In this document: piece by piece, positions 124-43,971 of the stretch
Layout of the letters: each line of letters begins with the position of its first letter
Numbering within the stretch: the stretch's first letter is position 1
Origin: a virus
Strand: one strand, 5' to 3'
DNA: 43,971 bases
Virus record (IMG/VR): IMGVR_UViG_3300010401_000016
Location: 1 to 43,971 of that record
The notes under the pieces: generated by a model
The model's database searches: none
What the model saw: the letters and a program-made list of their open reading frames with translations, nothing else
Told to the model about the DNA's origin: nothing
Made by a program: the position numbers and the translations under genes

Positions 124-1578
124 GATTAATGAACTGAATACACCAGCTTCCAATGTTGCAGCTCTCAATTTTACTGTATGCGAACCTGGAGTAGCAATTG
201 TCAACCAAATACCAACTGTAGCATTTTGAAAATAACTTGCCGGAGAACTATGCTTCCAAACTAATTGATTAGAACCAGAGTCTACTCTAGCATATAACAA
301 TACTGTATGCGCACTTCCAGTGTTTTCAAAAATATCACTATTAAGTGAGAAGAACACGTCTTCATTTGCTCTCGTAGTTGTTATTGGAATTGATAAACCA
401 GTATCTGTAATTGTTTGACTGTTTACATCAAAAGGACTTCCTAAAGAAGCTGCTTTTGTTACTACAGGGAAACTTTCACCTGCGCCACCACCAGCTTTTA
501 AGATCACCATTTTTTGTGGTGAATTTGTGTCCCAATTAATTGTTGCTGATCCACCAGTTCTTTTTACTCTTGGTTTAAATGTGTGAGATCCTGCTGCTAA
601 AGTAACTTTAGCCATACCAGCAAATGCTTCTGTAGCAATCGATGCATTAGAAATTGTAGTTGGAGTTAAATCATAGTCTGTTGAATCAATTCGAACACCC
701 CAAGCCGCCGTTGTATCTGTTGCCGATGTGTTATACCAACCACCTGTATAAAGAATAAGGTAATCACCTGCGGGCATGTCAGTTACAGTTTGATTTGTGT
801 CAACATCAACATAAGAACTTGAAGTTGTGCTGCTAGCTCCTGCAAACGAAAGAAGACTCAAAAATCCTGTTGAACCACCACTTCCACCTGCATTATCATC
901 AACATATTTTTTTGTAGCAGCATCTTGATTCGATGTTGGGTCTGTAACATTAGTAATTTTATGTGATCCCATATCGATAACACCAGACATAGTGCCACCA
1001 GAGAGGGAAAGTTTTGCATCAAGTTGATCTTGAATTGAAGAAGCAGTCGAGATACCTGAAAGTTGTTGAGCTTCCAAAGCTGTTACAACCGAGTCAATAG
1101 GAAGTCCATCGCCATCAGAGATTAAAAGCATATCTGGATCGATTGCGACATTTTCAATAATTTCGTCGCCAGCAGAAACCATAACACGAAGGTTATTTAA
1201 AACTGCATTGGATCCTGTACCACCACGAATAACTTCGAGAACGGTGATCGTATCTTCTTTGCTGTCAAGTTGGGTTTGAACATCAGCATCAATATTTTCC
1301 AAAAAAGAAAGAATAGAATCTTGTAGTCCAGATTCGACAATGAATCCGTCTTCATCAGATACAAGAACTTTATGACCTGTACTTAAATTTCCAGGGGCAA
1401 GTTCGCCATCATCTGTAAGAATAGCTGGAGAACTTTTTAAAGTTTTTCCGTCTTCATTTGCAAAACGAGCAATCGCATTCGCAACTGATTCATTTGGGCC
1501 TACTACGTCACCATCTCCACCGTTACCAGTTTGATTGGTTGTATGCTCAAATTTATTTGGGTGTTTTCTAATAAGCAT
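1..1578 (-). CDS. Tail fibre protein, N-terminal 526 codons. The gene continues across the circular junction into 43486..43848.
   Basis: ATG at 1578-1576 (MLIRKHPNKFEHTTNQTGNGGDG...). The frame stays open to base 1 and is in phase with ORF 43486..43818. It contains the fibre motif LSLSGGTMSGVIDMGSHKITNVTDPTSNQDAATKKYVDD. It is absent from the ORF track only because it has no stop inside the window. Confidence 0.8.
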   Translation of the reverse strand, partial: MLIRKHPNKFEHTTNQTGNGGDGDVVGPNESVANAIARFANEDGKTLKSSPAILTDDGELAPGNLSTGHKVLVSDEDGFIVESGLQDSILSFLENIDADVQTQLDSKEDTITVLEVIRGGTGSNAVLNNLRVMVSAGDEIIENVAIDPDMLLISDGDGLPIDSVVTALEAQQLSGISTASSIQDQLDAKLSLSGGTMSGVIDMGSHKITNVTDPTSNQDAATKKYVDDNAGGSGGSTGFLSLLSFAGASSTTSSSYVDVDTNQTVTDMPAGDYLILYTGGWYNTSATDTTAAWGVRIDSTDYDLTPTTISNASIATEAFAGMAKVTLAAGSHTFKPRVKRTGGSATINWDTNSPQKMVILKAGGGAGESFPVVTKAASLGSPFDVNSQTITDTGLSIPITTTRANEDVFFSLNSDIFENTGSAHTVLLYARVDSGSNQLVWKHSSPASYFQNATVGIWLTIATPGSHTVKLRAATLEAGVFSSLIGTNSVFQIAQFPSGADAAVVKGAFTPTSNFTNCTLTGFFWF

Positions 1579-1579
1579 T

Positions 1580-1936
1580 TTATAAACTCAATTCGCTACC
1601 TAACACTATAAAATTAATTTTGTCTGCATTGCTAACTTTGCACATCAAAACGTCTTCAGCAATTCCTTGAATTGGAAGACCAGCACCTTCGAGAATTTCT
1701 GTTGAATTTGCTGCAATACTTACTTGGTAAAATAAAGCTTGATCAACTGATGGTGTATCACCAACAGTGCAAAGATAAATATCAACTGTGACTGCAACTG
1801 TGTGGGTGTTGCAAATCATAATCTTATTGATCTCTTTGATCTGATTTCCAATAGGTTGAAATAATGTAACTGGATCGGTTGAATCGGGACTTACACGAGC
1901 CAATACCTGATCGCTTTCTTTATAACTTCTAATCAT
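1580..1936 (-). CDS. Hypothetical virion-module protein (118 aa).
   Basis: Track ORF. Its stop lies 1 nt before the fibre ATG, and its start overlaps the upstream gene end (1929..1936), so it is tightly coupled in the structural operon. Confidence 0.6.
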   Translation of the reverse strand: MIRSYKESDQVLARVSPDSTDPVTLFQPIGNQIKEINKIMICNTHTVAVTVDIYLCTVGDTPSVDQALFYQVSIAANSTEILEGAGLPIQGIAEDVLMCKVSNADKINFIVLGSELSL

Positions 1937-2912
1937 ATTTTTTATTCCTCATAAATCTAAAACGCTCTGTTGTGATATTGAGATTTTGGAGGTTCACACG
2001 AGCAAACTTAGAATCAAATTTGTTTTTAAATTGGTTTCCCTCGGTTACAAGAGCATCGAACATTCTCTTTGCTGATTGTAAATATTTATCAGCTCGATCA
2101 TCATCAAGCTCTTTCATGAATCTGTAGCAGGTCAATTCTGCGATGACCAAACGTCTGTGTTTTGGAAGCAGAGGGTTTACTGCTGGGTCAATCGACAATG
2201 CAGTTGGTACTGGAATGCAATCAATAGAGATGGTGGATATTCCCTCTGGATATGAATCCAAACGAATTGTAAAATTGTATGCTTCGTCTTGAAGGATCGA
2301 TCCAGCTTTGCAAGGAATTTGTTTTCGAATGCAGTTGATTGGATAAGCAGCTTCAAATGCTTCTTTATCCAGAAGATCTAGTTGTTTATTGATTCTATTT
2401 GCTGTTCTAAACATTACTTTTGAAAGTGGAACAAGAACATTCGCAAATGTATAATCAAGTTTGAAAATTTCGACTGATTCAAGTGCAGTTGTGGCTTCAG
2501 TGAATTCTTCAACAAGAGTTAAAGTTGCAGAGCCACCAGTATGTGATGCGATTTTGTAAACGACATCATTGGTTAAAAATTTTATGTAATAGCCAGCGAG
2601 GGAAGGAGTATAGCTTGAGTTTAGCGTTACTGTTTTGCTTCCGTTTGTGCTTGAGGCTGTTTTGCTCGTAATTGGAGCTTCAACTTTAAGAGAAAGTTTG
2701 TTTATTTGTTTTGCCCAGGGAAATACTTGTGGGCGACGAATGGGTTGACCACCGTCATCAAGATTTAATTCGCCACCACCTGCGAGAATTGTTTTATGAG
2801 CATTGTCGAGTTCAGCGATGATGCTTTCTCGAAAGTCTGCCGGACTATTCGCATTTGTGCTGATTACACCTTCGCAATATTCTACAAGTTCTTCAGTCGT
2901 TTCAAATGCCAT
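1929..2912 (-). CDS. Hypothetical structural protein (327 aa), possibly an adaptor or tail component by position.
   Basis: Track ORF with an AGAGGA Shine-Dalgarno site upstream of the ATG at 2912. It lies between the capsid genes and the fibre. Confidence 0.6.
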   Translation of the reverse strand: MAFETTEELVEYCEGVISTNANSPADFRESIIAELDNAHKTILAGGGELNLDDGGQPIRRPQVFPWAKQINKLSLKVEAPITSKTASSTNGSKTVTLNSSYTPSLAGYYIKFLTNDVVYKIASHTGGSATLTLVEEFTEATTALESVEIFKLDYTFANVLVPLSKVMFRTANRINKQLDLLDKEAFEAAYPINCIRKQIPCKAGSILQDEAYNFTIRLDSYPEGISTISIDCIPVPTALSIDPAVNPLLPKHRRLVIAELTCYRFMKELDDDRADKYLQSAKRMFDALVTEGNQFKNKFDSKFARVNLQNLNITTERFRFMRNKKYD

Positions 2913-3001
2913 AATCCTCTATTTGGGGGAGACTGACTAATGACTTGGAATGGAAGTGGATGGGATCACCAGCCAGCCTTATTCCCCCGTTTAAATCTTT
3001 G

Positions 3002-3472: not shown

Positions 3473-3510
3473 TTTAAAAAAGCACAAGGGAACCTTTCGA
3501 TTCCCTTGCA
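3473..3510 (-). terminator. Rho-independent terminator after the capsid gene pair.
   Basis: On the minus strand: CAAGGGAA (3508-3501), an 8-nt loop, TTCCCTTG (3492-3485), then TGC and TTTTTT (plus-strand A6 at 3476-3481). Confidence 0.7.
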
Positions 3511-4891: not shown

Positions 4892-5551
4892 TTATTTTTT
4901 TGTTCTATAAATGGAATTGTTGCGTAAGATCTCAATTGGATCAAACTTTTCGCCCTGGGTTTCGTCTTGCTTTTGCGACTTACCAACAGAGGATACCGAT
5001 CTTTTGCCGCCCGAATTCAAAGTCGTAGAGCCAGTAGTCTCTTCTTCTTCAGATTCTTGAGTGGGTAGACCAAACAATTTTCCGAGTGTTTCTAAAGCGT
5101 CATCAGATTTATTTAATGCATCTTTATACATCGTGTCTGACAAATACCGAATACGGTCTTTACCATGCACTTTAACAAGTGAAGGATTTTTAGTGAAAAA
5201 CTCATTAAAAATTTCTTCGTTGTTTTGTATGCGTTCTGCATCTTGTTTACTGACTTTTCCTTGTGTCACAACAGCGTTATGAAGTTGTTTCAAAGCTTCC
5301 TTCGGATCTTCCTCGTAAGTTTTGATAACGTCACTAAGTTCAGGAATTTTTTCCTGAGCCGTGTTCATAAATTTTCTGCGATGACCTAACTCGTTCCCTT
5401 GTTTACCAACAGTTGAGGATAACTTTTTTATAGTTTCCGCAGCTTGTTGTTTAGTATACTTTTTTCCATCAACTTCGATAATATCAGTTGCTTCTGATTT
5501 ATCTGCTTGATCAAGACCATCCTGACCAGCATTCTTTGCATCGTCGTTCAT
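4892..5551 (-). CDS. Scaffolding protein (putative).
   Basis: 219 aa, highly charged and helical (K/E/Q-rich), located between the portal and the major capsid gene. Confidence 0.6.
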   Translation of the reverse strand: MNDDAKNAGQDGLDQADKSEATDIIEVDGKKYTKQQAAETIKKLSSTVGKQGNELGHRRKFMNTAQEKIPELSDVIKTYEEDPKEALKQLHNAVVTQGKVSKQDAERIQNNEEIFNEFFTKNPSLVKVHGKDRIRYLSDTMYKDALNKSDDALETLGKLFGLPTQESEEEETTGSTTLNSGGKRSVSSVGKSQKQDETQGEKFDPIEILRNNSIYRTKK

Positions 5552-5841: not shown

Positions 5842-7849
5842 TACTTCCTCCTTCGTTTCCCGAAACCATACCATCTGGTATTTGTGTTGCGTTTGCAGGA
5901 CTTACAGCAGCAGGGCCAGCTTCAGGCGAGGGAGCTGCTTGTGGGGCAGGTTGTCCTTGCTGAACTTGTGCTTTCATCATAATTTGTTCCTTGATCGTTT
6001 GTACCATCATTTCACGTTCCATCTCTTGAGGAGTCAAGGCTATTTCCTCAATATCCAATCCAGATGTTTTTACCAGCTCTTTGAAGAGTTTTGGTATCGA
6101 AACACCTTGTTGAATCTGTTCCATAAGGGCAGGATTTTGTCCGGCAATAGAAAGAAGCGACATATATTGCTGCATTTTCTGATTGCTGGCTGCGATTGAT
6201 CGGATCCCTTTTCCCTTGAATCTGAAAGCATCTGCACCATATTCGAATCTTTTATTTTTTGCGAGATCCTTAAATTCCTGGATTAGAACTGCTTGAAGTT
6301 TTCCTGGATCAACATCTTTACGATATTTTTCTGCGTATACGATCATTTCATGACCTTCAAAAGCAGCCATCAAAACATCATCATCAATCTTGTCAGCATT
6401 TTGTAAGATTTCGCACCAAGCTTGTTCTACAAGTGGGACAATAAATCCTGTTTCAAAATCTGCACAGAAATTGTCAAAAATTCCTTGAATAGATGCACCA
6501 GCAGCAGAAACTTCTGTTGCTTTTACAGCTTTGTCAGGAAGTTGACCTGAAAGAGAGATTTCATTTTGCATTACGTTTTCTGCAAAAGAAGATCCACAAA
6601 TTCCAAGAACATTAAAAACTTCTTGAGGAACTTGTCCTGTCTCAACAGTTGTCAATGCGTCCGCATTTGGTGGAGCGAGTTCATTTAAAAATAAAGTAGT
6701 ATCAGGTTCCATTCCATCTTCTGCTTGAGTCGGATCTGCAAGCCATGCCATGCGAACTTGTTTAATTCCATGTACAGATTTTCTTGCTCCATCAACAGAG
6801 AGGGAAATCAATTCGTCCATATAACGATTAAGATCAACACCTGCATCGATCATTGCTTTTGGTTGTTTAGCACCTTGAACACGAATAAGATTTTGTGTGA
6901 TGAAGGGTCTTCGTTTACTCCATCGAGGATTTGTTTCTGGTTCTCTAATTAATTCTTTTTCATTTGCGAATGTACAGAGAACATTTTCAAGAGGAATGAT
7001 AGTTCCATCTTTTTTCTTGTATTGCATGATCATACCTTGTCGATCAAGCAATGTTCCCCAAAATTCGTGGACAGTAATTGGTTTTCTTCGTCCTTGTTTC
7101 GGAGAAGATGATTCATCAGGTTTTTTTGGATCCTGAACATCGACAGGTCTTACTTCTGCTTTCAGACATTCCAATTTTTCCTTCATGTAAGGTTTCTTTT
7201 TATTTGGTTTGTCGTCTGACAATTGATAAAGAGAATAATAGTCTACATTTTCCTCGTGAATCTCATAGAGATCTTGAGATGGGTCTGTGTGGTAATTTTT
7301 ATATGGAAGAACATCAAGAAAAAGCATCCACTTCATTTCTTGTTTGCCATTGATGTTGTAATATTTTTGAACAGGGACTTCTCTGCCTGTTATTTTAACT
7401 GTGGATCGAGATTCGATAACACCATTCTTCATGGAGTCACCGACTTTAAGCATTACTTCCGCTTCGTCGAGATAACTCATCAAAATACGTTTTGCAACTG
7501 TGTCTGTGATCAATCCAGTAGGATCTGCATAGCCAGGACGATTTTCTACGACAAGCCACTTGTCGAAGTTCATAATTCCCTTTTTCATTTGAGCTGTGAT
7601 TTGATCAACAGCCAAACCTGCTTTGTTTAAATGGATACGAGCTTGTTCAGGAGCTTTCTTACCCCAATCAATATCGCCATTGTACATTCTCCAGTTATTA
7701 TCGTTTTTTACGATTCGTTCTATCTCAGACAATCGAGCTTCTTGAAGGCATTCTTTAAATGCCTCAACGATTTCCACATCCTGATTTTTATATTCGTCTT
7801 CTTTGGTGTCTTCTACTGTGGATCCGTATTTATTTTGTTCGTCTGACAT
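5834..7849 (-). CDS. Portal protein.
   Basis: 671 aa, immediately downstream of the terminase and upstream of scaffold and capsid. It has the acidic N-terminus and Pro/Ala/Gln-rich C-terminus common in podovirus portals. Confidence 0.8.
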   Translation of the reverse strand: MSDEQNKYGSTVEDTKEDEYKNQDVEIVEAFKECLQEARLSEIERIVKNDNNWRMYNGDIDWGKKAPEQARIHLNKAGLAVDQITAQMKKGIMNFDKWLVVENRPGYADPTGLITDTVAKRILMSYLDEAEVMLKVGDSMKNGVIESRSTVKITGREVPVQKYYNINGKQEMKWMLFLDVLPYKNYHTDPSQDLYEIHEENVDYYSLYQLSDDKPNKKKPYMKEKLECLKAEVRPVDVQDPKKPDESSSPKQGRRKPITVHEFWGTLLDRQGMIMQYKKKDGTIIPLENVLCTFANEKELIREPETNPRWSKRRPFITQNLIRVQGAKQPKAMIDAGVDLNRYMDELISLSVDGARKSVHGIKQVRMAWLADPTQAEDGMEPDTTLFLNELAPPNADALTTVETGQVPQEVFNVLGICGSSFAENVMQNEISLSGQLPDKAVKATEVSAAGASIQGIFDNFCADFETGFIVPLVEQAWCEILQNADKIDDDVLMAAFEGHEMIVYAEKYRKDVDPGKLQAVLIQEFKDLAKNKRFEYGADAFRFKGKGIRSIAASNQKMQQYMSLLSIAGQNPALMEQIQQGVSIPKLFKELVKTSGLDIEEIALTPQEMEREMMVQTIKEQIMMKAQVQQGQPAPQAAPSPEAGPAAVSPANATQIPDGMVSGNEGGSNV

Positions 7850-8253: not shown

Positions 8254-9113
8254 AAATTATACTTCGCCGTTACGGGCTTTACGTTACCAAAGCCTCGATT
8301 CATCATTTTAACATAATTTGTTATTCTAGTACAGACGTACTGTAAAGCATCGTGAATGTGGGAATATTCATTCTTCATAGGCTTTTCACTAAAGTGACTG
8401 TCAGCACCGCGAACAACTTTTTTGTATTTATAACCTGAACTGAATCCTTCATTCAAAACTTTATTCGCCGGATCACTCTGAAGTGTCGGCTTACCGTTTG
8501 AAAGACCACAAAGCAGCGTCATTACAGCATTAATTCTGGATTCTGGATTCTGTTCTCCTGGAACTGGTTGCAAACCATTCTTAACCATTACCTTATAGCA
8601 ACTGTTATTGGTCGCCTGCTCTTGAAACATGCCTGCCGGATCAATTACGTCAATAACCTTTCCAACCGCACCAAAATCTCGATTGAATGCTCCTAGAATC
8701 GAGGGAACTGCGATTTCGCTTCCTGCTCCTTCTGTGATGTATTCTTTCAAGATCCAAAGTGTATTTTCGTAGAACTGTACGACAACACAGCACTGATTCA
8801 GGCCAAAATCCCATCCACGAAATATTGGAAGCCCAGGACGGACTTTTATGGACTTCGTGGTAATGTGAATATTTCTGTTGAAGTTCCTACCATAGACAGG
8901 TTTGTCTGCGGAGGTTTCCCAATTCATTTCATATTCTCGTTCCCATTGTTCTTGGGACTTACCTTTACGCTCTTCGTCGTACCAGTCTTTGTTATCTTTC
9001 TTCGGGTTCGCAGTATAGTGCAATTCTGCGCAAAAAAATCCATTCATTGGATTTACCCAACTCTTGAATCCCTTTTCCCTCTTTGCAGGTATTTTAAGTT
9101 TAAACTTTTTCAT
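8250..9113 (-). CDS. terL: Terminase large subunit, C-terminal (nuclease) segment.
   Basis: Contains WEREYEMNWE, GWDFGLN, IDVIDPAG and HIHDALQYV, which are RNase H-like terminase nuclease motifs. It is in the +1 frame relative to 9100..9789. Confidence 0.85.
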   Translation of the reverse strand: MKKFKLKIPAKREKGFKSWVNPMNGFFCAELHYTANPKKDNKDWYDEERKGKSQEQWEREYEMNWETSADKPVYGRNFNRNIHITTKSIKVRPGLPIFRGWDFGLNQCCVVVQFYENTLWILKEYITEGAGSEIAVPSILGAFNRDFGAVGKVIDVIDPAGMFQEQATNNSCYKVMVKNGLQPVPGEQNPESRINAVMTLLCGLSNGKPTLQSDPANKVLNEGFSSGYKYKKVVRGADSHFSEKPMKNEYSHIHDALQYVCTRITNYVKMMNRGFGNVKPVTAKYNL

Positions 9114-10696: not shown

Positions 10697-10823
10697 GATT
10701 CGTCAGATTCCCATATTGCTATGGAATTCCGTTCCCTCGAAATTATAATATCTCATGATTGGAAGAAAAAGTCAAGTATTGCGCCCTAATATATAGGCGC
10801 AACTTAATAGCGTATGTGCGCTA

Positions 10824-11816
10824 TTAAACTATTGAATACTCTACGTTTATTTGAACCCCTGCTGCTGCATTTGCAGAAGTATTGAGAACTAGAGCTGTAT
10901 TGACAGGCAATTTCCAGGAAGTTTCCTCGTAAAAATTAAAAGCAGATGTTGTTAACCATTTTTTTCGAACTGTTCCGGCAATGCCTTCTGTCAGAGATGG
11001 ATTGACTACAGATGTCAATGTGCTGGACAATGTGATTCGTTTTACCCAAATTGAAAGTGATGCTCCAGGAGCTGCTATCACAGTTGTATTTCCAACAACA
11101 GCAGTGAACACACTCACAATTGAATTTGGCCCGATTATAGTTGCGAGTTGATTACTGATAGCTACTTGTGCAAGTCCAGTTGCTGCTCCTGTTGGAAGAG
11201 CTGAAGAATCCACAGTAACATGCTGCACATCAGCAGGTTTTGTTCGTGTACTTAGTTGCACATCGATATTATCAGTTTTTAATTTGATATTGTCTAAAAC
11301 ATTTTTAATAGTTGTGAGTGAAGAATCTGCGGCTGCTCCGGCGGGTAATGGTAGTGCTACTACACTGATTGGTTGAGTTGCTTGCCAAAAAGTTCCTGTC
11401 ACAGCGATTGCTGTTGAAATTGAAACTGGTTGTGTTGTTTGCCAGAATGTGCCAGATACAGGTTGTGTAGCAGGCCAGAAGGTTCCAGTGACTGATTGAC
11501 TCACAGGAAAATTTGAAACATTAAATGAACTGGGAAAATTTCCTACATTCACATTTCCTGACACTGCTGCTGATACAGATCCTGATACTGGTTGTACTGT
11601 GGGAAATGCTGGAAAATTATTTACATGAACTTCCTGAGAAGAGGGAAAGTTGGAAATATTGATTGAGGAAGGAAAAGTTATGTTTAAGTCTTGGATTGCA
11701 GTGAGAACTTCTTGGAGCGTAACTTCTTTGGCTGCTGTAGAATCGACAGTCAGTAATTTTTTGTCGTAGCTGAAGCGAAGCGCATTTAAAACTTCGGATA
11801 ATTTTTTATCCATCAT
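10824..11816 (-). CDS. Repeat-rich protein (330 aa), a candidate virion or receptor-binding protein.
   Basis: Track ORF. Internal repeats are NFPSS/NFPxxQ (x4-5), GTFW(P/Q)xTQP(V/I)S (x3) and LPxGAA (x2). It is bracketed by its own promoter and terminators. Confidence 0.6.
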   Translation of the reverse strand: MMDKKLSEVLNALRFSYDKKLLTVDSTAAKEVTLQEVLTAIQDLNITFPSSINISNFPSSQEVHVNNFPAFPTVQPVSGSVSAAVSGNVNVGNFPSSFNVSNFPVSQSVTGTFWPATQPVSGTFWQTTQPVSISTAIAVTGTFWQATQPISVVALPLPAGAAADSSLTTIKNVLDNIKLKTDNIDVQLSTRTKPADVQHVTVDSSALPTGAATGLAQVAISNQLATIIGPNSIVSVFTAVVGNTTVIAAPGASLSIWVKRITLSSTLTSVVNPSLTEGIAGTVRKKWLTTSAFNFYEETSWKLPVNTALVLNTSANAAAGVQINVEYSIV

Positions 11817-11896: not shown

Positions 11897-12637
11897 TTAC
11901 CGATTACGGTTCGGCACAGTTGGATTGGAATTCTGTCCACCAAGAATCATTTTGAAGAGAGCTTCAAGAGGATTTTCGGGGGGCTTTGGTTTCGTGTAAA
12001 CTAAATAATCGAGAACACCGTCGATCATTCCAATCTTTGCAGCTTGTGTTGCAGTCATTTCCCAATCTCGACGTGTAACCTTTTCAAGATAATCTTTGGT
12101 TGTCATTCCGAGTTGTGCAGCAATATCTTCAGAAATTTCTGAATTAGAAGCAAGGGAAACATCGAGTGCATCTTTTACGTCGAGGATTGGCCCTTGAACT
12201 CCGATTTGAATTTGGTGAAATAGAATTGTTGCTTGTCGTTGTACATATGTTTCATAGCAGTATGCTGTAATGAATGCTGCCATAGAAGCTGCTTGATGTT
12301 TAACTCCACAAATCACTTTGAGATTTTTATCTTCCTTCAATGATTTGATTGTGTCGATTATATCAAAGCCTGCTTCAACTCTACCGCCTGGTGAATCAAT
12401 CATCAGATAAATAGGTTTGTTATTTTTTTTTGCAAGCTCATTCATTTCATCAATTACAGTGTCAGCATTAACTTTCTCAATTACACCTTCAAGAACAACT
12501 GTTCTTTCTGGATCTGCTTCCAATGTTTTTAATTTTTTTACTTTCTGTTCCTTGGTGAAATTAACTTTGGACTGATCGCTGGCAAATGCTGATAAGCTGG
12601 AGCTTATTAGAATCGCGCTCAACAATAATTTAAACAT
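11897..12637 (-). CDS. ClpP-family (S14) serine protease with an N-terminal Sec signal peptide. The start is refined from the track value.
   Basis: Signal peptide MFKLLLSAILISSSLSAFA/SD. ClpP motifs are IDSPGGRVEAG, HQAASMAAF (Ser), LFHQIQIGVQG (His) and RRDWEMTATQAAKIGMIDGV (Asp). The start overlaps the upstream stop as TAATG and follows GGAAGGAAAG. Confidence 0.8.
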   Translation of the reverse strand: MFKLLLSAILISSSLSAFASDQSKVNFTKEQKVKKLKTLEADPERTVVLEGVIEKVNADTVIDEMNELAKKNNKPIYLMIDSPGGRVEAGFDIIDTIKSLKEDKNLKVICGVKHQAASMAAFITAYCYETYVQRQATILFHQIQIGVQGPILDVKDALDVSLASNSEISEDIAAQLGMTTKDYLEKVTRRDWEMTATQAAKIGMIDGVLDYLVYTKPKPPENPLEALFKMILGGQNSNPTVPNRNR

Positions 12638-13380
12638 TATACTTTCCTTCCCTGGAAGTAGTGGCTGCAATCACGGCACTGTAGTGCTTGATACTTCCCT
12701 ACTTTTTTAATATTGTATCCTCTGATTACCACATGATCAGAAGCGCAGTGAGGACATGCGTCTCTATCTGCTTTCGCAATGACCCCTCTATGGGCTTTCA
12801 CTGGAAAGAACTTAGAAGCTTTTTTGAAAACTCTTTCGAGTAAACGAACATCGCGTTGACAATAGCGAACCATTTTGTCCATGTGTGTCTTGCTGCGATT
12901 TTCTACGATTTGAACCCAATCGTCAAAGTTCATCGGTGCTTTACCTGCACCCAATAAAATTTTTGAAATGTAATCCAAACGATGAGAGGGAAGATTGAAA
13001 ACTTTACGGAAGTTTTTCAATGTATCTTCTGATGTAGGCCAATTGATCGGATCTTGATTGTTCATCAAGCGTTGTGCATTAAGATGTTTGATGTCGAATG
13101 AATCACCATTGTGGGCGATAACGACATCTGCTGATTCAACAACTTTTGTAAATTCTTTTACAAGCTGCGAGCTGTCACGGGTTTTCATGTTCCAAGAAAG
13201 TTTGCTTACAGTACGATCACCGAGAAACTTCCAACACACGCAAAGGATTTCCGTCTTCTGTCCTTTTTTGATTTGATCGTGGCTGATGTTGATCTTGCTA
13301 CCTGTTCTCCAGATATAAGCAAGGATGGGTGAGGTTTCAATATCAAAAAATAAAACTTTGGGTTTTTTCATTACTTCCAT
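12637..13380 (-). CDS. DnaQ/RNase H-fold 3'-5' exonuclease-like protein with a C-terminal zinc ribbon.
   Basis: Exo I FFDIETS, Exo II AHNGDSFDIKHL and Exo III YCQRDVRLL, followed by CPHC...CRDC. Confidence 0.7.
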   Translation of the reverse strand: MEVMKKPKVLFFDIETSPILAYIWRTGSKINISHDQIKKGQKTEILCVCWKFLGDRTVSKLSWNMKTRDSSQLVKEFTKVVESADVVIAHNGDSFDIKHLNAQRLMNNQDPINWPTSEDTLKNFRKVFNLPSHRLDYISKILLGAGKAPMNFDDWVQIVENRSKTHMDKMVRYCQRDVRLLERVFKKASKFFPVKAHRGVIAKADRDACPHCASDHVVIRGYNIKKVGKYQALQCRDCSHYFQGRKV

Positions 13381-13413: not shown

Positions 13414-13635
13414 TTATAGGTTCTCCATGAAGATTCCCTTGATCATTTCAAGTACACCCATAACTTCCCAGTTATTGAGTTTACAGGTTGACATCCTGAA
13501 GTGACCATCTTTGGTCGCAGTGATCACAATCGCTATATCGGCTGGGTTCTTCTTCATCTCTTCCAGGGTTGTGTTCAATAACTGTTCAGGTGTGGATCCA
13601 TTATCTTGATAATCTTTGATGTCAACGAGTTTCAT
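13414..13635 (-). CDS. Hypothetical protein (73 aa).
   Basis: Track ORF whose start overlaps the stop of 13632..13898. Confidence 0.5.
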   Translation of the reverse strand: MKLVDIKDYQDNGSTPEQLLNTTLEEMKKNPADIAIVITATKDGHFRMSTCKLNNWEVMGVLEMIKGIFMENL

Positions 13636-14411: not shown

Positions 14412-14522
14412 AGTTCAAACTCTGTGCCAAATCTCTGCAAACAAGCCCAAGTCAATCAATAGTTTCATTAATAATATTAATAGCCTAGAATATGCTCAAC
14501 GCGCTCGCCTTCCCTCTTTGCA

Positions 14523-15933: not shown

Positions 15934-15944
15934 CGAGGGAAGCA

Positions 15945-16592
15945 ATGCATTATCTAAAAATATATACAAAGTACGCCAAAAAAGAGAACTTGAAATATAA
16001 ACAATTCTTAAATGATGCTTGCTCAGGTGATACCGATCAAATGCGCGTTTATAACAGATTGCTTTTTGCTTTCTTGTCGGTCAATACATCATACGACAAA
16101 ACAGCAAAGGCATATGACGACATGAAAAATAAATATTGGTTAGATACCACTGAAACAATGAATAAACTTTTAGAGCATGGTATACATTATGCAGCGTCAA
16201 GGGCTGGCTATATAGCTCTGACATCGAATGACTTTATATCGAACTATGATAGTTTTTTAATTGGTGACTGCGAATCATGGAATGATTATCGAAATAGACT
16301 GGTTGAAAAAATCAAAGGTCTTGCCCTGGTTAAAGTTTCATTCTTTATAACCCTGGTTTACAAAGACGCTGATATATGCTGTCTTGATCGCTGGGTATTG
16401 CGTTTAATGGGTAAAAAAGACCCCGAAAAATTCATGAGATTGCTTGCACATCGTAACAGATACCAAAGATTAGAAGCAATTTTACGTAAACAAGCTCAGT
16501 CAATAAAAATTCCCTTGTTTCAATATCAATGGGCGGCATGGGACAAAATACAAAACAAACCTAATGCAATGGAAGTGCTACATGGAAGCTAA
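15945..16592 (+). CDS. Ogg2-like HhH-GPD DNA glycosylase (putative).
   Basis: LLFAFLSVNTSYDKTAKAY plus KGLALVKVSFFITLVYKDADICCLDRWVLRLMG resemble the Ogg2/AGOG-type HhH Lys and the ...LDRH... Asp region. The Shine-Dalgarno site is GAGGGAAG. Confidence 0.45.
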   Translation: MHYLKIYTKYAKKENLKYKQFLNDACSGDTDQMRVYNRLLFAFLSVNTSYDKTAKAYDDMKNKYWLDTTETMNKLLEHGIHYAASRAGYIALTSNDFISNYDSFLIGDCESWNDYRNRLVEKIKGLALVKVSFFITLVYKDADICCLDRWVLRLMGKKDPEKFMRLLAHRNRYQRLEAILRKQAQSIKIPLFQYQWAAWDKIQNKPNAMEVLHGS

Positions 16593-30959: not shown

Positions 30960-31327
30960 AGACTAAGATCAAAAAGACTGACTGGATTTATTTCGATGTC
31001 GATGATACACTTGTCATGTGGCATCAGCCTGAAGGCTATTCCCTTGAGGATGCAGAGTACATTCAGGATCCTTATATTGAGGGTGAAAGAGGTATTCATA
31101 AACTGTTTCCACATAAGAAACATATTGAACTTCTAAAGATGTTTGCTGCTCGTGGAACCAATGTAGTTGTATGGAGTGCTGGTGGATATGAATGGGCAAA
31201 GGCAGTTGTGGATCATTTGAAGATCAATAAGTATGTTGTAGCTGTTCTTGAAAAACCTGCGACATACTATGATGATGACACACCAGATGTTTGGCTTGGA
31301 AAAACCCCTCGATGGAGTAAACCTTGA
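30956..31327 (+). CDS. HAD-superfamily hydrolase-like protein. The start is refined from the track value.
   Basis: Motif I is IYFDVDDTL. The ATG at 30956 overlaps the polymerase stop as ATGA. Confidence 0.6.
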   Translation: MKTKIKKTDWIYFDVDDTLVMWHQPEGYSLEDAEYIQDPYIEGERGIHKLFPHKKHIELLKMFAARGTNVVVWSAGGYEWAKAVVDHLKINKYVVAVLEKPATYYDDDTPDVWLGKTPRWSKP

Positions 31328-34472: not shown

Positions 34473-37400
34473 TGCTCATGGCAGCATTGACAGCAGCAGG
34501 TACAGCCTGTTGAGACTTCAATGCCAATTGTGATAACTTATAATAGTTTTGTAAAAGTTTGATTTCAGATTCTTCCATCAAACCAGTCTTTGCAAGATAA
34601 ATAGCTTTTTGTGGGTTCTTAATTGCCTTGATCAATTGTTCAGCAACTAATGCCCAAGGATGAGTGAATCCAACATAACCACGAATGATTACGTTTTGTG
34701 CTTTGTCTTGAAGAGCTTCAGCAAGTTCGGGAGCTAAAAATTTCATAGTAGGATCGCCACCTATCATTTTTTCCATCTTGGCAAGAGCTTTCAATGCTTT
34801 TCCATTCTCAACATTTTTCATGAATGTTTCACCAGCGGGGCCAAATACCATATAAGCAATTTCTTGCTTTTCAGCCGGATCTTTTGTTGGGTCATCCATC
34901 ATCTTCATAATTTCTTGATAAGCTTTTTTGCCAGGTTTACCATCCAATGCAATAAATCGCTTTCTTTGAGTTTCAAGGGAATCACGATACACAGAGAAAT
35001 TCTCAGGTGTCATATTTGATTTTGCAAGTTTGATTGCTGCTTCAACAGTCTTTGCATCTTTAGGATTCTTCAATGCATCATTCAATACTTTGGGCATACC
35101 CTTCATATTAGAAGCTACACGATATTCATCCAGGATTTGACCTGTGTCTTGCATACCTTTTTTGAGAGCATCTAAAGTTTCTTGTTCTTTAGGATTCAAC
35201 AAAGCAAATTCATCCAAACCTTGAGAAAGATTCTGTTCCCTCTTTGCAGCAATGGACATCAATCGTTTTTCAAAAGATGCGCGATTGGTCACAAGTCTGT
35301 TGACAGCTTTTTGATCAGCGATCTTATTAAGAGCTTTCATGGATCGAGTGAGTTGTGAAATATCTGCATCATTGAAATCCATTTTAAGAATGGCTTCATC
35401 TGATGTAAGGTTATCAATTGCAGATCCAACTTTTTCAGCATTTACTTTTGTAGATTTACTGAATGGGGCATTTGCAAAGTCATCGCCGAGTCTGGTGATT
35501 TTTTTGGTTTCGCTTAAAAGACCCTTGACTTGAGAATAGTCAGATGACATCTTAACGAAGGAATCAGCAACATCACCCTTTTCAGCATTATTTAAACTGT
35601 CGATGATTCGGGTTTTAAGAGCGTGCCAAGTGTTTGTTCCAGAAGAACCATCTTGCCAATCTTTTATTGCGCCGCCGAGTTCACGTTTCAAATCATTTAA
35701 TTCGGTAACACTTAATTCTTTATTATTCTTGACCAGACTTTTAGCCAAAGCTGCACCAGCTTGTGTTTTTGGTGCTTCAGCAATATGGTTTTCAATATCT
35801 GAGAATCCAGAATCTTTCACAGCTTGAGTAAGTTTTGTAGCGATTCCTTGTCTGCGGAATTCAGGTTTTACATAAACAGAGTCAACACCTTTGATTCCAG
35901 TTTTTCCTGCTTCTGGTAAATTGTAAGTTCTGAATCCTTGAACTTGTCCATCTTCACCGCGCATAACAGCAGCTTTATAATCTGAACCTTCTCCAACACT
36001 CTCAATTGTAATTCCTGGTTTTCCAGGTTTATTTAACCATTCTGGAATTTCTTGAGTGACTTCATCATCAGCAAGATCAGCAGTCATTTTTTTTCCAGGT
36101 TCTTTTCTGATCTTGTCCATCTTTTGAAGGACATTGAATTCAGTTTGAGACATGGCATTTTCTGTAGGGGCTATTGCGAGATTTCCATTAATGTCTTTAA
36201 CAATCTTTTCTTCTCGAATCGCATTTGAAATATAGCTATCAACAATGTCATCAATCTTCCCTACTTTGGTTTCACCCATATGAGGAGCAAGTTCTTTCAT
36301 TGCCTTACCATATTCAGAAGAAGCTTTTTGTTCAACTGCATTATAAAATTTATTTAGAGTTGCTTGTCCACCAACAACAATATGAGCTGCATCTTTTGCA
36401 TTTTTCTCAGTTGCTTGTGCAATTGTTTGAAGTGTGCGACCAGTTTGTTGAGCAACATTTTGAATAACAGGATTATTTGCAGCAGTATCAGCGACTGCTT
36501 CTGCACCTTGTTGAGCTGACTTTTGAAATGTTTGTGAAAGCTTATCGCTCAAGCCTTTAAGATATTCCATAGAAGCCTGACCAACTTCTTTTGCTTTTGC
36601 GAATCCACCAGACTGCTTAATGAAATCAAGCACTGTGTTTACTTCAGAAGCAGCTTCAGGAGTCATTCCTCTCATAGAAGCAACAGCAGCCTTTCCCTCT
36701 CTGAGCAATTGAGGAGCATAAAATGCACCAGGAATTGCAGCAGATACCAAACCAACAATACCAGCTTCTTTGAATTGATCTTTCAAAGTTTTATCAGCAA
36801 CATCTGGACTAAGATCTTTCACGGCATTGATTGCAGCAACTTCAGCAGTTGCTTTCAATGCTCCAGAAGCAATCTTCGCAGACTTATACGCAGTTTCAGC
36901 AGGTTTAAATAATGGAGTAACTTTTGAAACAGCCGCAGCAAGAGAGGGAAGTCTGGAAGCCATAGCTGCACCCTTTACGACAGTTGACTCAATTGCAGAT
37001 CCAAGGTTTACGAAGTTTGCGACATCACCGATCATTGCACCAGCTTTATTTGCTGATTCAATTTCTTTTGCGGCAGTGTCGTATTCTTCTAAGTTTTTAT
37101 GAAAGTTTTCTGTGAATGTTTGTTCTTCTTTTTTAGATTGATCAGAACCGAAACCATATGTACTATCAGTTGAAGTTTGAAATGCAGCTTTAGCAGCAGC
37201 AATTGGAGTCCGAGCCATTTCACTGTATTTGGTCATTGCAGCCAAAACATTACCCATGATTGCTCGTGCATTCAATCCTTTGTTTGGATTGATGACACCA
37301 GTCTTTTCATTGGCTTTCTTTGGAGCTGTACCAAAGGGATCAGAAGAATCGAAAGTTGGGCTGTCTACTTCTTCAGCAGAAAGCATTTTAGGAAGTTTAT

Positions 37401-40869: not shown

Positions 40870-42786
40870 TTATACTAAACCCTTTATTCCTAATGGCTTA
40901 TAGTACAAAAAGAGGGAATTGAAAATGAAGTTTTGTCCCAAGCCTGAATTTCTGACTCGGATCCCTATTTTGTTACCTATTCCATTGATTTTGATCTTTC
41001 GTCTTTCGAGCGAAATCCCGCCAAGTGCGTCCTGATCCAGTACAAATAAGTCCAGTGGAACTGTATTTGCTGAGGATACGGATATTGGAATTGTTTTGGC
41101 TACAATACCGTCGATTGTGATGTCCACAATCAAAGTATAATCGCCTGTTGGTTGAACCCAAATTTCAAGCCAGTCAAATCTTTTTTCTCGGTGACCCAGA
41201 TCAGGAGTAATCCAATCCAAATTTGTTTGAGGAAATTCAAAACTTCCCTCGTATGGAATAGTCATGCCGATGGAGCGTGTTGCTTGATTTGCTTTATAGA
41301 TGATACCATCATCACCAGCGCATCGAACAGCCATATTAGAATCTTGTTCTTGTGAAGCCCACATTGCTTGAAAGTATGAACCACGAGTTTCAACTGCGAT
41401 TCTGAAATTTGCAGGATTAGTTACGTCAATCACAAGACCGATGGAATTGAATTGATGTCCTTTTCTTGGATACATGATCCAAGCTTCTTGTCTTTCTGTA
41501 TCGTAATGAATTCTTGCGAATCGAAGACGAGACATATTTACATTTTGTTTTAACCAGTCTTTCAAGTGAAGAAGAGAAGTAATATCTGAACTTGCAAGAT
41601 CTTCACTATTTTGAACTGATGTTAAGGAATACAAATGTGCATCTGCACCAACAAACCAAACATCATTTCCTACACGAGCGATTGCGTGTTCACCTGCCAT
41701 ACCAATATCTTCTCGAACTGTGATGATTGGAGGGACAGTAAATTCTGTTGCAATGTCCGTTGTGTCGATTCTATAAACTCCATAAGGGAATTTAAAAACA
41801 AATAATTGTTGAGGAAGAAAACTAAAGCAGCAAGCAACTCGTTCAGAAAAACCTGGCTTAACTTCCAACACTGGAGGATTATCTGTACTGAAATCAGAGT
41901 GATCATCGAGATTACTAAAATAAATTGCATGTGGAGTTTTAGGACATCCATATGCAGCCATACGATAATCATGCATCAAAGCTGAAGAAGGATAATTTGT
42001 TTCTTCAGTTCCATCATGATCTAAATTTGTTTGTACAAAAGCTTCTTGAAAAGCTGTACCACTTCCAACCAATTGCACAAATACCAGAGCTGATGCATCT
42101 TCATCATTTGTAACCAAATTCATGATGTCATATGCATTGGTTGTAATTGCTCCCATTGCACCTGTTGCAAGGCTGATCGAGATGTCATTCCCTACGACTG
42201 AGATTGTCAATGGTTGATTATTTGCACCTGGATCAACATATTCAATTGTGATTGCATCGCCACCAGTTCCAGATTGTACTGCGGTATACAAAATTTCTTG
42301 AACTTGAAGAAATGAGTGGAATAACCAATCGAGGGAACCTGTTGTCATAGGAACCATCACATTGGATGTGCTATTTAATATTTGAGGATTTACGCCCTGA
42401 GAATAGAGATAAAGTTTTTTCTGTTTACCAATAAATTGATCACCTGATACAAGTGTAACTGGCTGAGTGAAATTCAAATCGTCTGCAAGGAGAAAAGCAG
42501 ATGCGTTGCCAGCTTGTTCTTTATAAACAGTTCCATTATCCCAAGCAGTAATTTGGTGTTGAAGCGTGGTCACAGGATGCCAGTCAAATCCAGCGAGTGC
42601 GCTGGGTTCATCTGGAATAGGATCTGTATCCAAAGCCAGAAGTCCTGGAGCTTTAGTATACGTGTCTCCATCAAAACGAATATTATTCGCTAAGATAAGA
42701 TTAGTGTAGGGGATTCGATTTAAGTTTTGATTGCCGTCGAACCCGCCAACTCCAATCTGGAATTCTGCGGTACTTCCTCGGTACAT
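40870..42786 (-). CDS. Tail tubular or nozzle-like protein (putative, 638 aa).
   Basis: A large beta-rich ORF adjacent to the fibre genes. It carries an inserted module of about 90 aa that is shared with 42786..43460. Confidence 0.5.
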   Translation of the reverse strand: MYRGSTAEFQIGVGGFDGNQNLNRIPYTNLILANNIRFDGDTYTKAPGLLALDTDPIPDEPSALAGFDWHPVTTLQHQITAWDNGTVYKEQAGNASAFLLADDLNFTQPVTLVSGDQFIGKQKKLYLYSQGVNPQILNSTSNVMVPMTTGSLDWLFHSFLQVQEILYTAVQSGTGGDAITIEYVDPGANNQPLTISVVGNDISISLATGAMGAITTNAYDIMNLVTNDEDASALVFVQLVGSGTAFQEAFVQTNLDHDGTEETNYPSSALMHDYRMAAYGCPKTPHAIYFSNLDDHSDFSTDNPPVLEVKPGFSERVACCFSFLPQQLFVFKFPYGVYRIDTTDIATEFTVPPIITVREDIGMAGEHAIARVGNDVWFVGADAHLYSLTSVQNSEDLASSDITSLLHLKDWLKQNVNMSRLRFARIHYDTERQEAWIMYPRKGHQFNSIGLVIDVTNPANFRIAVETRGSYFQAMWASQEQDSNMAVRCAGDDGIIYKANQATRSIGMTIPYEGSFEFPQTNLDWITPDLGHREKRFDWLEIWVQPTGDYTLIVDITIDGIVAKTIPISVSSANTVPLDLFVLDQDALGGISLERRKIKINGIGNKIGIRVRNSGLGQNFIFNSLFLYYKPLGIKGLV

Positions 42787-43460
42787 TACTCTTTCGTTTG
42801 GTATCTACCAGAATGTTCTGATGCGGGGGAATCATTAGCAGAGACAAACACTAAACGCGCCCATCTATGTTTTGTGTCGAATTCATCTGCATAATTTACT
42901 GCAACTGAACCATCAAAATCTTCTAAAGGATCCGCATCCCTCGACCATTCATTTTCTGCGGGAAGTTCATTTTCACCTTCTGGTGAGAAAGCATCTGATA
43001 CTTCACGATACAATGAACCTGCAACTTCATCGGCTGTTAGGCCAGTTGCATTTTGATCGTCTTGTGCATCGCTTGCTGTTCCACTGATTACTGGTGTAAC
43101 GAGTGCTAATGCAGGTGCGCTTGCAAGTATCGCAGCACGAATTTGTGTCGCTGTACTTACAGCATCTTCCATATGAACTACAATCGATGAGTCTGTTACT
43201 GAAACAGTTTCTGCTCCTGCTGAACCATCATCAAGATATGTTATTTCAATATCTGGATCTGCATCAAATCCTGTAGCGACTGCTGTGTAAGTAATATCTT
43301 GTATTACGACACTCGCAGCCAGTCCTGAAGTAGCACGATATTGGAATCCAACACCTGCCATTCTTTCTAAAAACATTGCGCGAGATTTTGCTTCTGCGCC
43401 AGCATCTATTTCACCAGACTCTGCTGGAAATAATGCTTGATTATCTGAATTTCTTATCAT
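42786..43460 (-). CDS. Tail or adaptor protein (putative, 224 aa).
   Basis: Track ORF with an AGGAG Shine-Dalgarno site. The stop/start overlap with the next gene is ATGTAA-type. Confidence 0.5.
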   Translation of the reverse strand: MIRNSDNQALFPAESGEIDAGAEAKSRAMFLERMAGVGFQYRATSGLAASVVIQDITYTAVATGFDADPDIEITYLDDGSAGAETVSVTDSSIVVHMEDAVSTATQIRAAILASAPALALVTPVISGTASDAQDDQNATGLTADEVAGSLYREVSDAFSPEGENELPAENEWSRDADPLEDFDGSVAVNYADEFDTKHRWARLVFVSANDSPASEHSGRYQTKE

Positions 43461-43485
43461 TTTATTATTCTCCTAATTACTTATC

Positions 43486-43971
43486 TTATATTGGTTTCGC
43501 AGGGAAGGATACATCGACTAAAAAAGAATCATCTGTGTTCCATGTAAATGGAATCGTATTTGTTACTTGAGCAGTCAAAGCAATACCACCTGATGTACCA
43601 ACATATAAATTTAAACTTGTATCATTATTGTGCCAAGCTGCTGTATCAATGTAATTTGCAGTGTGATGGTCTAACATATAAATAACACCAGGCAAAGGAA
43701 CACCCGTATCATCATCTAAATCAGCCACAATCATACTCGTATCACGTTGGTATCCACACGCTGCATAATCTAAATGCAATGTTGCAGAAGCACTTGTACT
43801 CGTCATCTTCCCTCTCATTTGAACTCTGAGTAATCCACTTCTAGGATCAAACCAGAAAAATCCAGTGAGAGTACAATTTGTAAAGTTTGATGTAGGAGTG
43901 AATGCTCCTTTTACAACTGCTGCATCTGCACCAGAAGGAAATTGAGCTATTTGGAAAACTGAATTTGTACC
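43486..43971 (-). CDS. Tail fibre protein, C-terminal part. This is the same gene as 1..1578, for about 646 aa in total on the closed circle.
   Basis: The frame is open from 43971 down to the stop at 43486. 43848-43818 = 30 nt keeps phase with codons ending at base 1. The track ORF merely starts at the first internal Met. Confidence 0.75.
   Translation of the reverse strand, partial: GTNSVFQIAQFPSGADAAVVKGAFTPTSNFTNCTLTGFFWFDPRSGLLRVQMRGKMTSTSASATLHLDYAACGYQRDTSMIVADLDDDTGVPLPGVIYMLDHHTANYIDTAAWHNNDTSLNLYVGTSGGIALTAQVTNTIPFTWNTDDSFLVDVSFPAKPI
43849..43971. repeat. Terminal direct repeat, copy 2 (identical to 1..123).
   Basis: Exact 123-nt match to the window start. Confidence 0.95.

Follow-up and report, generated by a model that had tools for sequence, protein, structure and literature searches.

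What reads a seven-nucleotide word that recurs about once per kilobase through a phage genome, and why has the genome kept it? The word, GAGGGAA, is dispersed through the 43,971 nucleotides of IMG/VR virus record IMGVR_UViG_3300010401_000016, analysed here over their full length (the window). Positions 1-123 of the window are identical to 43849-43971 (123 bp), and a public contig of 43,989 bp runs over the junction of the window ends, so that the sequence assembles into a circle with a genome unit of 43,848 bp. This makes the window a complete genome of a freshwater phage (source waters ERZ27256645 and SRR6184671), and a tail-fibre gene of 646 amino acids (aa) crosses the window ends. Despite the 123-bp overlap of the ends, no motif site was counted twice.

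We scanned the window for exact matches to the core 7-mer GAGGGAA and to the 8-mer AGAGGGAA. The results showed 45 copies of the core in 43.8 kb, 23 on the plus (+) strand and 22 on the minus (-) strand, which corresponds to about one site per kb, or approximately one per 2 kb on each strand, and 34 copies of the 8-mer (18+/16-). An initial annotation of this DNA had called the 8-mer hyper-abundant, which holds; its count of 32 does not, as the copies at 11640(+) and 12985(+) had been overlooked. The nine further 7-mer copies that it reported do exist, but the scan found 11, including those at 2036(-) and 8701(+), and two of its 7-mer starts (30035 and 38434) were slightly off, the correct ones being 30025 and 38433. 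The sites are as follows, each given by the coordinates of eight nucleotides, including the base at -1 of the core.

1002..1009, + strand: AGAGGGAA, antisense in the tail-fibre gene spanning the window ends
2036..2043, - strand: CGAGGGAA, sense in the open reading frame (ORF) 1929-2912(-), overlooked initially
2240..2247, - strand: AGAGGGAA
2597..2604, + strand: CGAGGGAA
4251..4258, + strand: AGAGGGAA, antisense in the major capsid gene
6799..6806, + strand: AGAGGGAA, position common to the sister phage (portal, I/L-S-L)
8700..8707, + strand: CGAGGGAA, overlooked initially
9075..9082, - strand: AGAGGGAA, extended form TGCAAAGAGGGAA
10096..10103, - strand: AGAGGGAA
10381..10388, + strand: AGAGGGAA, extended form TGCAAAGAGGGAA, intergenic
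10732..10739, - strand: CGAGGGAA, intergenic
11640..11647, + strand: AGAGGGAA, overlooked initially
12985..12992, + strand: AGAGGGAA, overlooked initially
14510..14517, - strand: AGAGGGAA, extended form TGCAAAGAGGGAA, intergenic
15934..15941, + strand: CGAGGGAA, also ribosome-binding region of gene 15945
17120..17127, - strand: AGAGGGAA
17974..17981, + strand: AGAGGGAA, 53 nt from the opposite-strand site at 18028
18028..18035, - strand: AGAGGGAA
18944..18951, - strand: GGAGGGAA, sole copy with G at -1
19393..19400, - strand: AGAGGGAA
20136..20143, + strand: AGAGGGAA
20977..20984, - strand: AGAGGGAA, antisense in the PD-(D/E)XK exonuclease gene
22821..22828, - strand: AGAGGGAA, in RtcB, absent at the homologous codons of five orthologues
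24497..24504, + strand: AGAGGGAA
25026..25033, - strand: AGAGGGAA, position common to the sister phage (R-S-L)
27617..27624, + strand: AGAGGGAA, also ribosome-binding region of gene 27626
28787..28794, + strand: AGAGGGAA, in PolA
30024..30031, + strand: CGAGGGAA, position common to the sister phage (PolA R-G-K)
30226..30233, - strand: AGAGGGAA, position common to the sister phage (PolA V-P-S)
30601..30608, + strand: AGAGGGAA
32372..32379, + strand: AGAGGGAA
32761..32768, + strand: AGAGGGAA
33120..33127, - strand: AGAGGGAA
34166..34173, + strand: AGAGGGAA
34464..34471, - strand: TGAGGGAA, sole copy with T at -1
35236..35243, - strand: AGAGGGAA, extended form TGCAAAGAGGGAA
36693..36700, - strand: AGAGGGAA
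36943..36950, + strand: AGAGGGAA
38433..38440, - strand: CGAGGGAA
39563..39570, + strand: AGAGGGAA
39945..39952, - strand: AGAGGGAA, also ribosome-binding region of gene 38783-39943(-), with the same arrangement in the sister phage
40911..40918, + strand: AGAGGGAA
41244..41251, - strand: CGAGGGAA
42330..42337, + strand: CGAGGGAA
43808..43815, - strand: AGAGGGAA

GAGGGAA is enriched in this genome under every null model applied. AGAGGGAA is the commonest octamer of the window genome, with 34 copies observed against approximately one expected. Dinucleotide shuffles of the window (n = 100) gave a mean of 1.1 copies of the 8-mer and a maximum of 4, and synonymous-codon shuffles within genes (n = 500), which keep the protein and the codon usage of each gene, gave a mean of 6.3. 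The codon-preserving check that the initial annotation had proposed thus left the shuffled counts far below the observed one (8-mer maximum 11 vs 34). In the same 500 shuffles the 7-mer averaged 12.0 copies (maximum 19), and an order-2 Markov model with the motif masked predicted 3.0, so that 45 copies stand against 3-12 expected across the null models.

The word itself is sharply defined. All seven core positions are invariant and most one-mismatch variants occur at background level; the one-mismatch neighbours of GAGGGAA total 102 in the window against 81 expected, which is no general excess. The motif is asymmetric, purine-only on one strand and not palindromic, and it ends abruptly at its 3' boundary with no constraint downstream. 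At -1 of the core, 34 sites have A and 9 have C, with one site each for G and T. A purine precedes AGAGGGAA on the 5' side in 31/34 copies (A18, G13, C3), which preserves the trend reported initially (29/32) with a new figure, and the four copies of the extended form TGCAAAGAGGGAA were all recovered. At window positions -2 and -3, upstream of the 8-mer, a purine is present in 36/45 and 35/45 sites, respectively (consensus RRAGAGGGAA). GGAGG is scarce genome-wide on both window strands (9 observed vs 25-28 expected), and this depletion may be the reason for the near-absence of G before the motif.

Reading frames and codon choice were then compared with the positions of the sites. The motif is a DNA-level constraint made through the choice of rare codons. 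By crude ORF calls, 39/45 sites lie in coding DNA (19 sense and 20 antisense, with each of the six frames represented) and the other 6 between genes or at gene edges; the placement of the sites is independent of the direction of transcription. Glu-Gly before a codon beginning with A was written GAG-GGA in 13 of 20 cases, compared to 1.7 expected, the expectation being this low because GAG is the minor Glu codon of the window phage. For Ser-Leu preceded by a T-ending codon, TCC-CTC was used 12 times out of 38, where 0.4 is expected. The site in RtcB is also written TCC-CTC, and in five RtcB orthologues (72-84% aa identity) the corresponding place is taken by other codons or residues. Selection on the signal is strong enough to override codon preference, and the initial proposal of a constraint on DNA, not a peptide repeat, was borne out by sites in all frames and both senses and by the rare-codon choice. 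A peptide repeat, an RNA motif, a promoter and a terminator were considered and are ruled out by all-frame, both-sense sites unrelated to the transcription arms; among Rfam families, none besides tRNA was found in the window.

Many dispersed copies of one short word are also a feature of mycobacteriophage stoperators and of cyanobacterial HIP1. Stoperators are repressor-bound sites of 13 bp, oriented with transcription and mostly intergenic. Unlike them, GAGGGAA is unrelated to transcription direction and 39/45 of its sites are coding; the transcription-oriented, chiefly intergenic pattern of stoperators or promoters is not seen here, with only 6/45 sites intergenic or at gene edges. HIP1 is a palindrome of cellular genomes (PMC5861425), whereas GAGGGAA is asymmetric and is no palindromic octamer of the HIP1 type. 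We found no description in the literature of a dispersed element of this sequence.

The only close relative found carries the same word. This sister phage, represented by contigs L002 and L008 from one Israeli freshwater metagenome (SRR8088706; sample via PMC9606356), has proteins 55-71% identical to those of the window and 39 GAGGGAA sites in 34.8 kb (18+/21-). Its base at -1 is A in 15 sites, T in 16, C in 8 and G in none, with no further flank preference; the flanks thus differ slightly between the two phages, the sister accepting T at -1 and lacking the purine bias of the window at -2 and -3. We compared site positions over 23.9 kb of codon-aligned orthologues (62.5% nucleotide identity). 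The results showed 21 window sites and 23 sister sites in the aligned DNA, with 4 positions in common, all at conserved residues, and many lineage-private sites coincide with amino-acid differences between the two phages. Density is kept while individual site positions turn over.

Outside this pair the word was not enriched. No near relative by DNA was found among 50,697 GenBank phages, in which PolA identity stays below 27% and the portal has no match; the capsid and large terminase (TerL) are about 30% identical to those of Vibrio, Pelagibacter and Methylophilales phages. Scans of IMG/VR, JGI metagenomes and GTDB for relatives returned one distant PolA relative, L007, which lacks any comparable motif; composition accounts for the AGCCTTGC that is frequent in it. 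Relatives at a greater distance (27-34% identity in the portal, 26% in PolA) carry 0-3 sites, and no other word is enriched in them to a similar degree; five phage contigs with a 72-84% identical RtcB have 0-2 GAGGGAA sites, and Methylophilales phage MEP301, which has the nearest TerL with a known host, has 1. A compositional artefact is contradicted by these six other phages (0-2 copies each) and by 1.2 Mb of bacterial DNA with 0.05 sites/kb.

To describe the arrangement of the sites, we calculated the coefficient of variation (CV) of the gaps between them. All window sites pooled gave a CV of 0.63 (P = 3e-4), and the regularity sits within strands. The + strand gaps of the window had a CV of 0.46 (P = 1e-4). 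In the sister phage, all four series were significantly regular (L008 + strand: CV 0.26, P = 3e-4; L008 - strand: CV 0.375, P = 8e-4; L002 + strand: CV 0.29, P = 0.002; L002 - strand: CV 0.33, P = 0.007). The - strand core gaps of the window had a CV of 0.77, which was not significant (P = 0.16). The mean same-strand gap is 1.5-2.3 kb across both phages. With the sites of both strands taken together, the largest gap between adjacent core sites measures 2592 bp (25026 to 27618); the interval from 10732 to 14510 that had been given as the largest contains the sites at 11641 and 12986. No repulsion between strands was found in either phage, the median distance to the nearest opposite-strand site being equal to the null obtained by rotating the sites of one strand, and close opposite-strand pairs occur at 18, 75 and 82 nt in the sister phage (range 18-118 nt) and at 53 nt in the window.

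Even spacing is a within-strand property, and the two strands are mutually independent. The initial description of the sites as evenly spaced is statistically sound once it is referred to single strands, and that of orientation independence applies to the counts (23+/22-) but not to the spacing. Because + and - sites are not jointly spaced, the reader most likely distinguishes the strands and tracks along the DNA, with the distance to the next correctly facing site mattering. Strand-specific tracking disfavours DNA uptake sequences and ordinary double-strand binding. The readings left are an end-tracking nuclease (Chi), priming by the replisome, and nicking or marking in a strand-specific manner. 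The feature is real and under strong selection, and its spacing is indirect evidence that it is read in one orientation: GAGGGAA, with the preference of the window for A over C at -1, would be a strand-specific signal maintained by selection at approximately one copy per 2 kb in each orientation.

One variant showed a distribution linked to that of the core. AAGGGAA was present in 19 copies compared to 6.7 expected in the window, the clearest excess among the 21 one-mismatch variants. Its mean distance to the nearest same-strand core site was significantly larger than expected (1122 nt vs 679 nt, P = 0.0017), no relation to opposite-strand core sites was detected (P = 0.58), and its copies fall in the large same-strand gaps of the window core series. 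When core and variant were combined as RAGGGAA, the CV was 0.53 and 0.51 on the two strands of the window (P <= 1e-4), and no same-strand gap exceeded 3.5 kb. The sister phage shows no enrichment of AAGGGAA; its core sites are regularly spaced by themselves. AAGGGAA is probably a weaker form of the signal; partly active one-mismatch variants are expected from what is established for E. coli Chi. The copies in the window are the following.

3486..3492, + strand: variant AAGGGAA, possible weaker site, far from same-strand core sites
12152..12158, + strand: variant AAGGGAA
18062..18068, + strand: variant AAGGGAA
18923..18929, + strand: variant AAGGGAA
21636..21642, + strand: variant AAGGGAA, within the largest + strand core gap (20137-24498)
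23374..23380, + strand: variant AAGGGAA, within the same gap (20137-24498)
24058..24064, + strand: variant AAGGGAA, within the same gap (20137-24498)
25562..25568, + strand: variant AAGGGAA
34975..34981, + strand: variant AAGGGAA
41784..41790, + strand: variant AAGGGAA
3501..3507, - strand: variant AAGGGAA, within the largest - strand core gap (2240-9075)
5394..5400, - strand: variant AAGGGAA, within the same gap (2240-9075)
6211..6217, - strand: variant AAGGGAA, within the same gap (2240-9075)
7576..7582, - strand: variant AAGGGAA, within the same gap (2240-9075)
13434..13440, - strand: variant AAGGGAA, within the - strand core gap 10732-14510
16510..16516, - strand: variant AAGGGAA
26729..26735, - strand: variant AAGGGAA, within the - strand core gap 25026-30226
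31039..31045, - strand: variant AAGGGAA
38970..38976, - strand: variant AAGGGAA

To survey the genes that could take part in reading the signal, about 60 ORFs of the window were scanned against Pfam, PHROGs, NCBIfam and PDB. The structure and lysis genes comprise portal, capsid, a ClpP-like protease, a two-ORF terminase, tail genes and an M15 endolysin; the replication genes are PolA, a D5-type helicase and a MazG-like dATP/dGTP pyrophosphohydrolase. A recombination set is formed by a PD-(D/E)XK exonuclease (20174-21073), a Sak4-like protein (24943-25683) and a weak RecU-like match. No integrase, DNA methyltransferase, HNH or other nickase, or RecBCD inhibitor was recognised in these ORFs, and the phage, without an integrase, looks virulent. 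No primase domain was found either, which leaves room for a novel primase; in the DUF3987 protein, the similarity to primase-helicases is confined to their helicase part.

We tentatively favour GAGGGAA as a Chi-like control sequence of the end-processing helicase-nuclease of the host (RecBCD or AddAB), by analogy with Chi-rich phages; the reader enzyme, the packaging mode and the benefit to the phage are what we infer beyond the observed enrichment and spacing. Given the circular assembly, the virion DNA would probably be circularly permuted and terminally redundant, and its linear ends could lie anywhere in the genome. A nuclease would enter from either DNA end, move inward and read one strand, and a correctly oriented site in the first few kb would switch it from degradation to RecA loading. 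This switch would protect the genome and may promote cyclisation and recombination-dependent replication. With ends anywhere and facing both ways, a site would be needed in each orientation every few kb; selection would favour one site per orientation per ~2-3.5 kb, and an extra same-strand neighbour would add nothing. Such gap-limited selection would produce even same-strand spacing, equal strand counts, independence of the strands and rapid turnover of positions.

The likeness to Chi extends to form and abundance. The Chi-rich phages are the closest case on record. Like Chi sites, which are 5-8 nt long, GAGGGAA is short, asymmetric and rich in G, and hardly any of its positions is free to vary. 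As with Chi in phages P1, LLS and Pseudomonas phage MD8, the word gives the commonest octamer, tens-fold over expectation, at approximately one per 2 kb; the combined density in the window is about twice that of Chi-rich phages. Chi enrichment in such phages has been read as selected for use of the host RecBCD (PMC12315714), and nearly all Chi sites of fixed-end phages face one way. In the first 50 kb of the headful-packaging phage P1, Chi is present on both strands (15+/12-), as the motif is here.

Several results weigh against the Chi-like reading. Known Chi sequences are, to our knowledge, G-rich but not homopurine, whereas GAGGGAA is purine-only and unrelated to them in sequence. The - strand core gaps of the window are not significantly regular, and regular spacing within strands is not a property of the Chi-rich phages: Chi spacing in P1 is irregular (CV 1.27 and 0.99), and in LLS and MD8 the sites are clustered near one end (PMC12315714). 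High Chi density in lambdoid phages goes with the absence of a recombination module of their own (PMC12315714), a correlate and not part of the definition of Chi; the window phage, by contrast, has its own module of exonuclease and Sak4-like annealing protein. The five RtcB-sharing phages and MEP301, which may infect other hosts, have no motif enrichment, and none of 80 bacterial loci (1.2 Mb, a small and biased sample of taxa) is motif-rich (0.05 sites/kb, maximum 0.26/kb). The properties that define Chi, recognition by RecBCD or AddAB and an over-representation in the host chromosome with a leading-strand skew, are predictions of this reading.

For a reader encoded by the phage itself we see a substantial chance, though one well short of even; GAGGGAA would then be a strand-specific ruler, set every ~2 kb per strand, that primes the lagging strand or marks the phage's own DNA. 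Lagging-strand start signals for the phage replisome, which we consider unlikely, would have TTCCCTC template a purine primer 5'-GAGGGAA-3', with the spacing setting Okazaki-fragment length for both fork directions. The strand-specific spacing of 1.5-2.3 kb agrees with this, matching bacterial and phage Okazaki-fragment sizes, as does a homopurine/homopyrimidine motif with a sharp 3' boundary and no constraint downstream, a purine being the usual first base of a primer and hybrids of purine RNA with pyrimidine DNA being exceptionally stable. PolA, a D5-type helicase and an SSB-like (single-strand-binding) zinc-ribbon protein are encoded by the phage itself, and the motif is confined to a two-member clade, as a phage-encoded reader predicts. 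T7-type primase sites are likewise strand-specific template signals, sharply bounded and corresponding to the primer. Known primases, however, recognise 3-5 nt, compared to the 7-8 fully specified nucleotides here, and no ORF scanned contains a primase domain, the DUF3987 match covering the helicase part only. T7-type sites are not known to be enriched or evenly spaced; a case in which selection has multiplied primase sites and spaced them evenly is not known to us, and a literature search found none. In the marking form, which is decidedly improbable, a tracking nuclease of the phage (e.g., the RecB-family PD-(D/E)XK exonuclease) would degrade unmarked DNA, namely the host chromosome, and be halted or redirected by GAGGGAA on the phage genome. 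Strand-specific, gap-limited spacing fits this self-marker as well as it fits the Chi model, the phage does encode a protein with a RecB/AddB-family nuclease domain, and the motif is restricted to the clade and absent from the sampled bacteria and other phages. Against it, exonucleases of this kind often accompany phage annealing proteins, nothing points to sequence control, and we know of no phage-owned Chi analogue that serves as a self-marker. A target of a phage-encoded strand-specific nicking or base-modifying enzyme is quite unlikely. Over-represented short words that mark strand-specific nicks are a known phage feature, and the nick sites of T5, phiKMV and tf resemble GAGGGAA as a specific short word found many times per phage genome with a strand-specific effect; tf carries 14 copies of the 9-mer TACTRTGMC, each nicked in virion DNA and 14/14 on the top strand (PMC3517423). 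An Ogg/HhH-type glycosylase homologue (15945-16592) and the RtcB ligase could in principle cut and reseal nucleic acid. However, the nick sites of these phages lie on one strand, number 4-14 and are uneven, whereas the window has ~22 sites per strand (23+/22-) in an even ~2-kb spacing that nicking leaves unexplained. Close opposite-strand pairs are not avoided (18-118 nt apart in the sister phage, 53 nt in the window), although nicks there would risk double-strand breaks, and neither a nickase (HNH or other) nor a DNA methyltransferase was detected.

Recognition of double-stranded DNA without regard to orientation, as an uptake sequence shared with a competent host or as sites for a nucleoid, packaging or partition protein, is very improbable. 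The density of about one copy per kb, the equal strand counts and the tolerance of several coding frames are those of the uptake signal sequence (USS) of Haemophilus and the DNA uptake sequence (DUS) of Neisseria, and even USS spacing has been reported for Haemophilus. Those elements are chromosomal, in competent bacteria, and work in either orientation, whereas here they would sit in a virulent-looking phage with strand-specific spacing. If + and - sites were interchangeable they should repel each other, and no repulsion was seen, the regularity lying within strands; there is no mismatch excess besides AAGGGAA and no flank consensus common to both phages. A virulent-looking phage without an integrase offers no route for uptake-driven accumulation, and none of the 80 bacterial loci is motif-rich. 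The USS/DUS analogy of the initial annotation is disfavoured on these grounds (within-strand spacing, no extended flank, few near-matches, no integrase and no motif-rich cellular genome found), and its broader suggestion of a dispersed site for a DNA-binding, modifying or nicking activity survives only in a strand-specific form, the orientation-blind form being at odds with spacing that is regular per strand. Hardly credible is a functionless by-product of composition, codon usage, biased repair or mutation. Some oligonucleotide bias does exist, as the 9 copies of GGAGG against 25-28 show, but codon-preserving shuffles reach at most 11 (8-mer) and 19 (7-mer) where the genome has 34 and 45. A repair drive should deplete one-mismatch neighbours, which instead number 102 against 81 expected, a mutational process does not create even same-strand spacing, and related and co-occurring phages lack the motif.

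Weak clues to the host came from several features of the genome. The ribosome-binding sites of the window phage are Shine-Dalgarno-like and its M15 endolysin is small, a combination that points, if only weakly, to a Gram-negative host that does not belong to the Bacteroidota. TerL is nearest to those of phages of aquatic Proteobacteria. The nearest cellular RtcBs are from cyanobacteria, then beta- and gamma-proteobacteria (50-56% identity), with 0.05 sites/kb in the surrounding DNA. RtcB homologues at 72-84% identity were followed as a host lead and proved to be other phages without the motif, and the two phage tRNAs were too divergent to serve as host probes. A two-copy pattern (AGAGGGAA N0-30 AGAGGGAA), meant to pick out motif-rich genomes, gave tandem repeats and the ribosome-binding-like GGAGGGAA among the matches listed and was set aside.

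Other features of the genome were recorded alongside the motif. The early arm opens with an S-adenosylmethionine (SAM) lyase (PF23780) at 15523-15933 (+), an enzyme type with which phages are known to counter SAM-dependent restriction and BREX; a PHROG match of this ORF to 'SAM-dependent methyltransferase' was discarded, as Pfam identifies a SAM lyase instead. The Ogg/HhH-type N-glycosylase/DNA-lyase homologue (PF22175, NF002305) at 15945-16592 (+) lies in the same arm. The 6-bp palindromes AACGTT, ACATGT, AGTACT and AGGCCT are absent from the window, where 4-7 copies of each are expected, which suggests restriction-site avoidance, and no modified-base genes (PurZ, DpdA and similar) were seen in the window. 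A divergent tRNA-His gene (22381-22455, +) stands directly upstream of RtcB and overlaps its annotated start (22354-23625, +); the pair resembles a module for repairing or replacing tRNAs under attack by host anticodon nucleases. RtcB is common to otherwise unrelated phages at 72-84% identity, and a second tRNA, Met (CAT), is located at 10566-10640 (-). The large terminase is divided into separate ATPase and nuclease ORFs at 8250-9113 (-) and 9100-9789 (-); because the split recurs in L008 of the sister phage and in L009, a relative at a greater distance, it is probably real and not a sequencing error. A DnaQ-like 3'-5' exonuclease ('DNA polymerase exonuclease subunit', PHROG 403) with a C-terminal zinc ribbon (12637-13380, -) lies in the structural arm, far from PolA, which has an exonuclease domain of its own. 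The MazG-like pyrophosphohydrolase (PF18909; 27961-28572, +) is directly upstream of PolA and is kept in the sister phage. A 219-aa protein (26226-26885, +) combines a CxxC...CxxC zinc ribbon with a strongly acidic C-terminal tail, a layout like that of single-strand-binding proteins of the phage T4 gp32 type; it was rejected as a primase, being SSB-like by its tail, and its sister counterpart is only 36% identical.

The strand-specific, gap-limited spacing of GAGGGAA is a new quantitative signature that can be searched for in other genomes as a sign of signals for tracking enzymes. If the reader is phage-encoded, the motif would represent a new class of genome-wide cis-acting element in a virus. 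If GAGGGAA is the Chi of the host, the Chi sequence of an uncultured freshwater bacterium would have been revealed from phage sequence alone, providing a sequence tag for phage-host matching in metagenomes, and the strategy of Chi-rich phages would extend from temperate phages of enterobacteria and Pseudomonas to an environmental phage that looks virulent.

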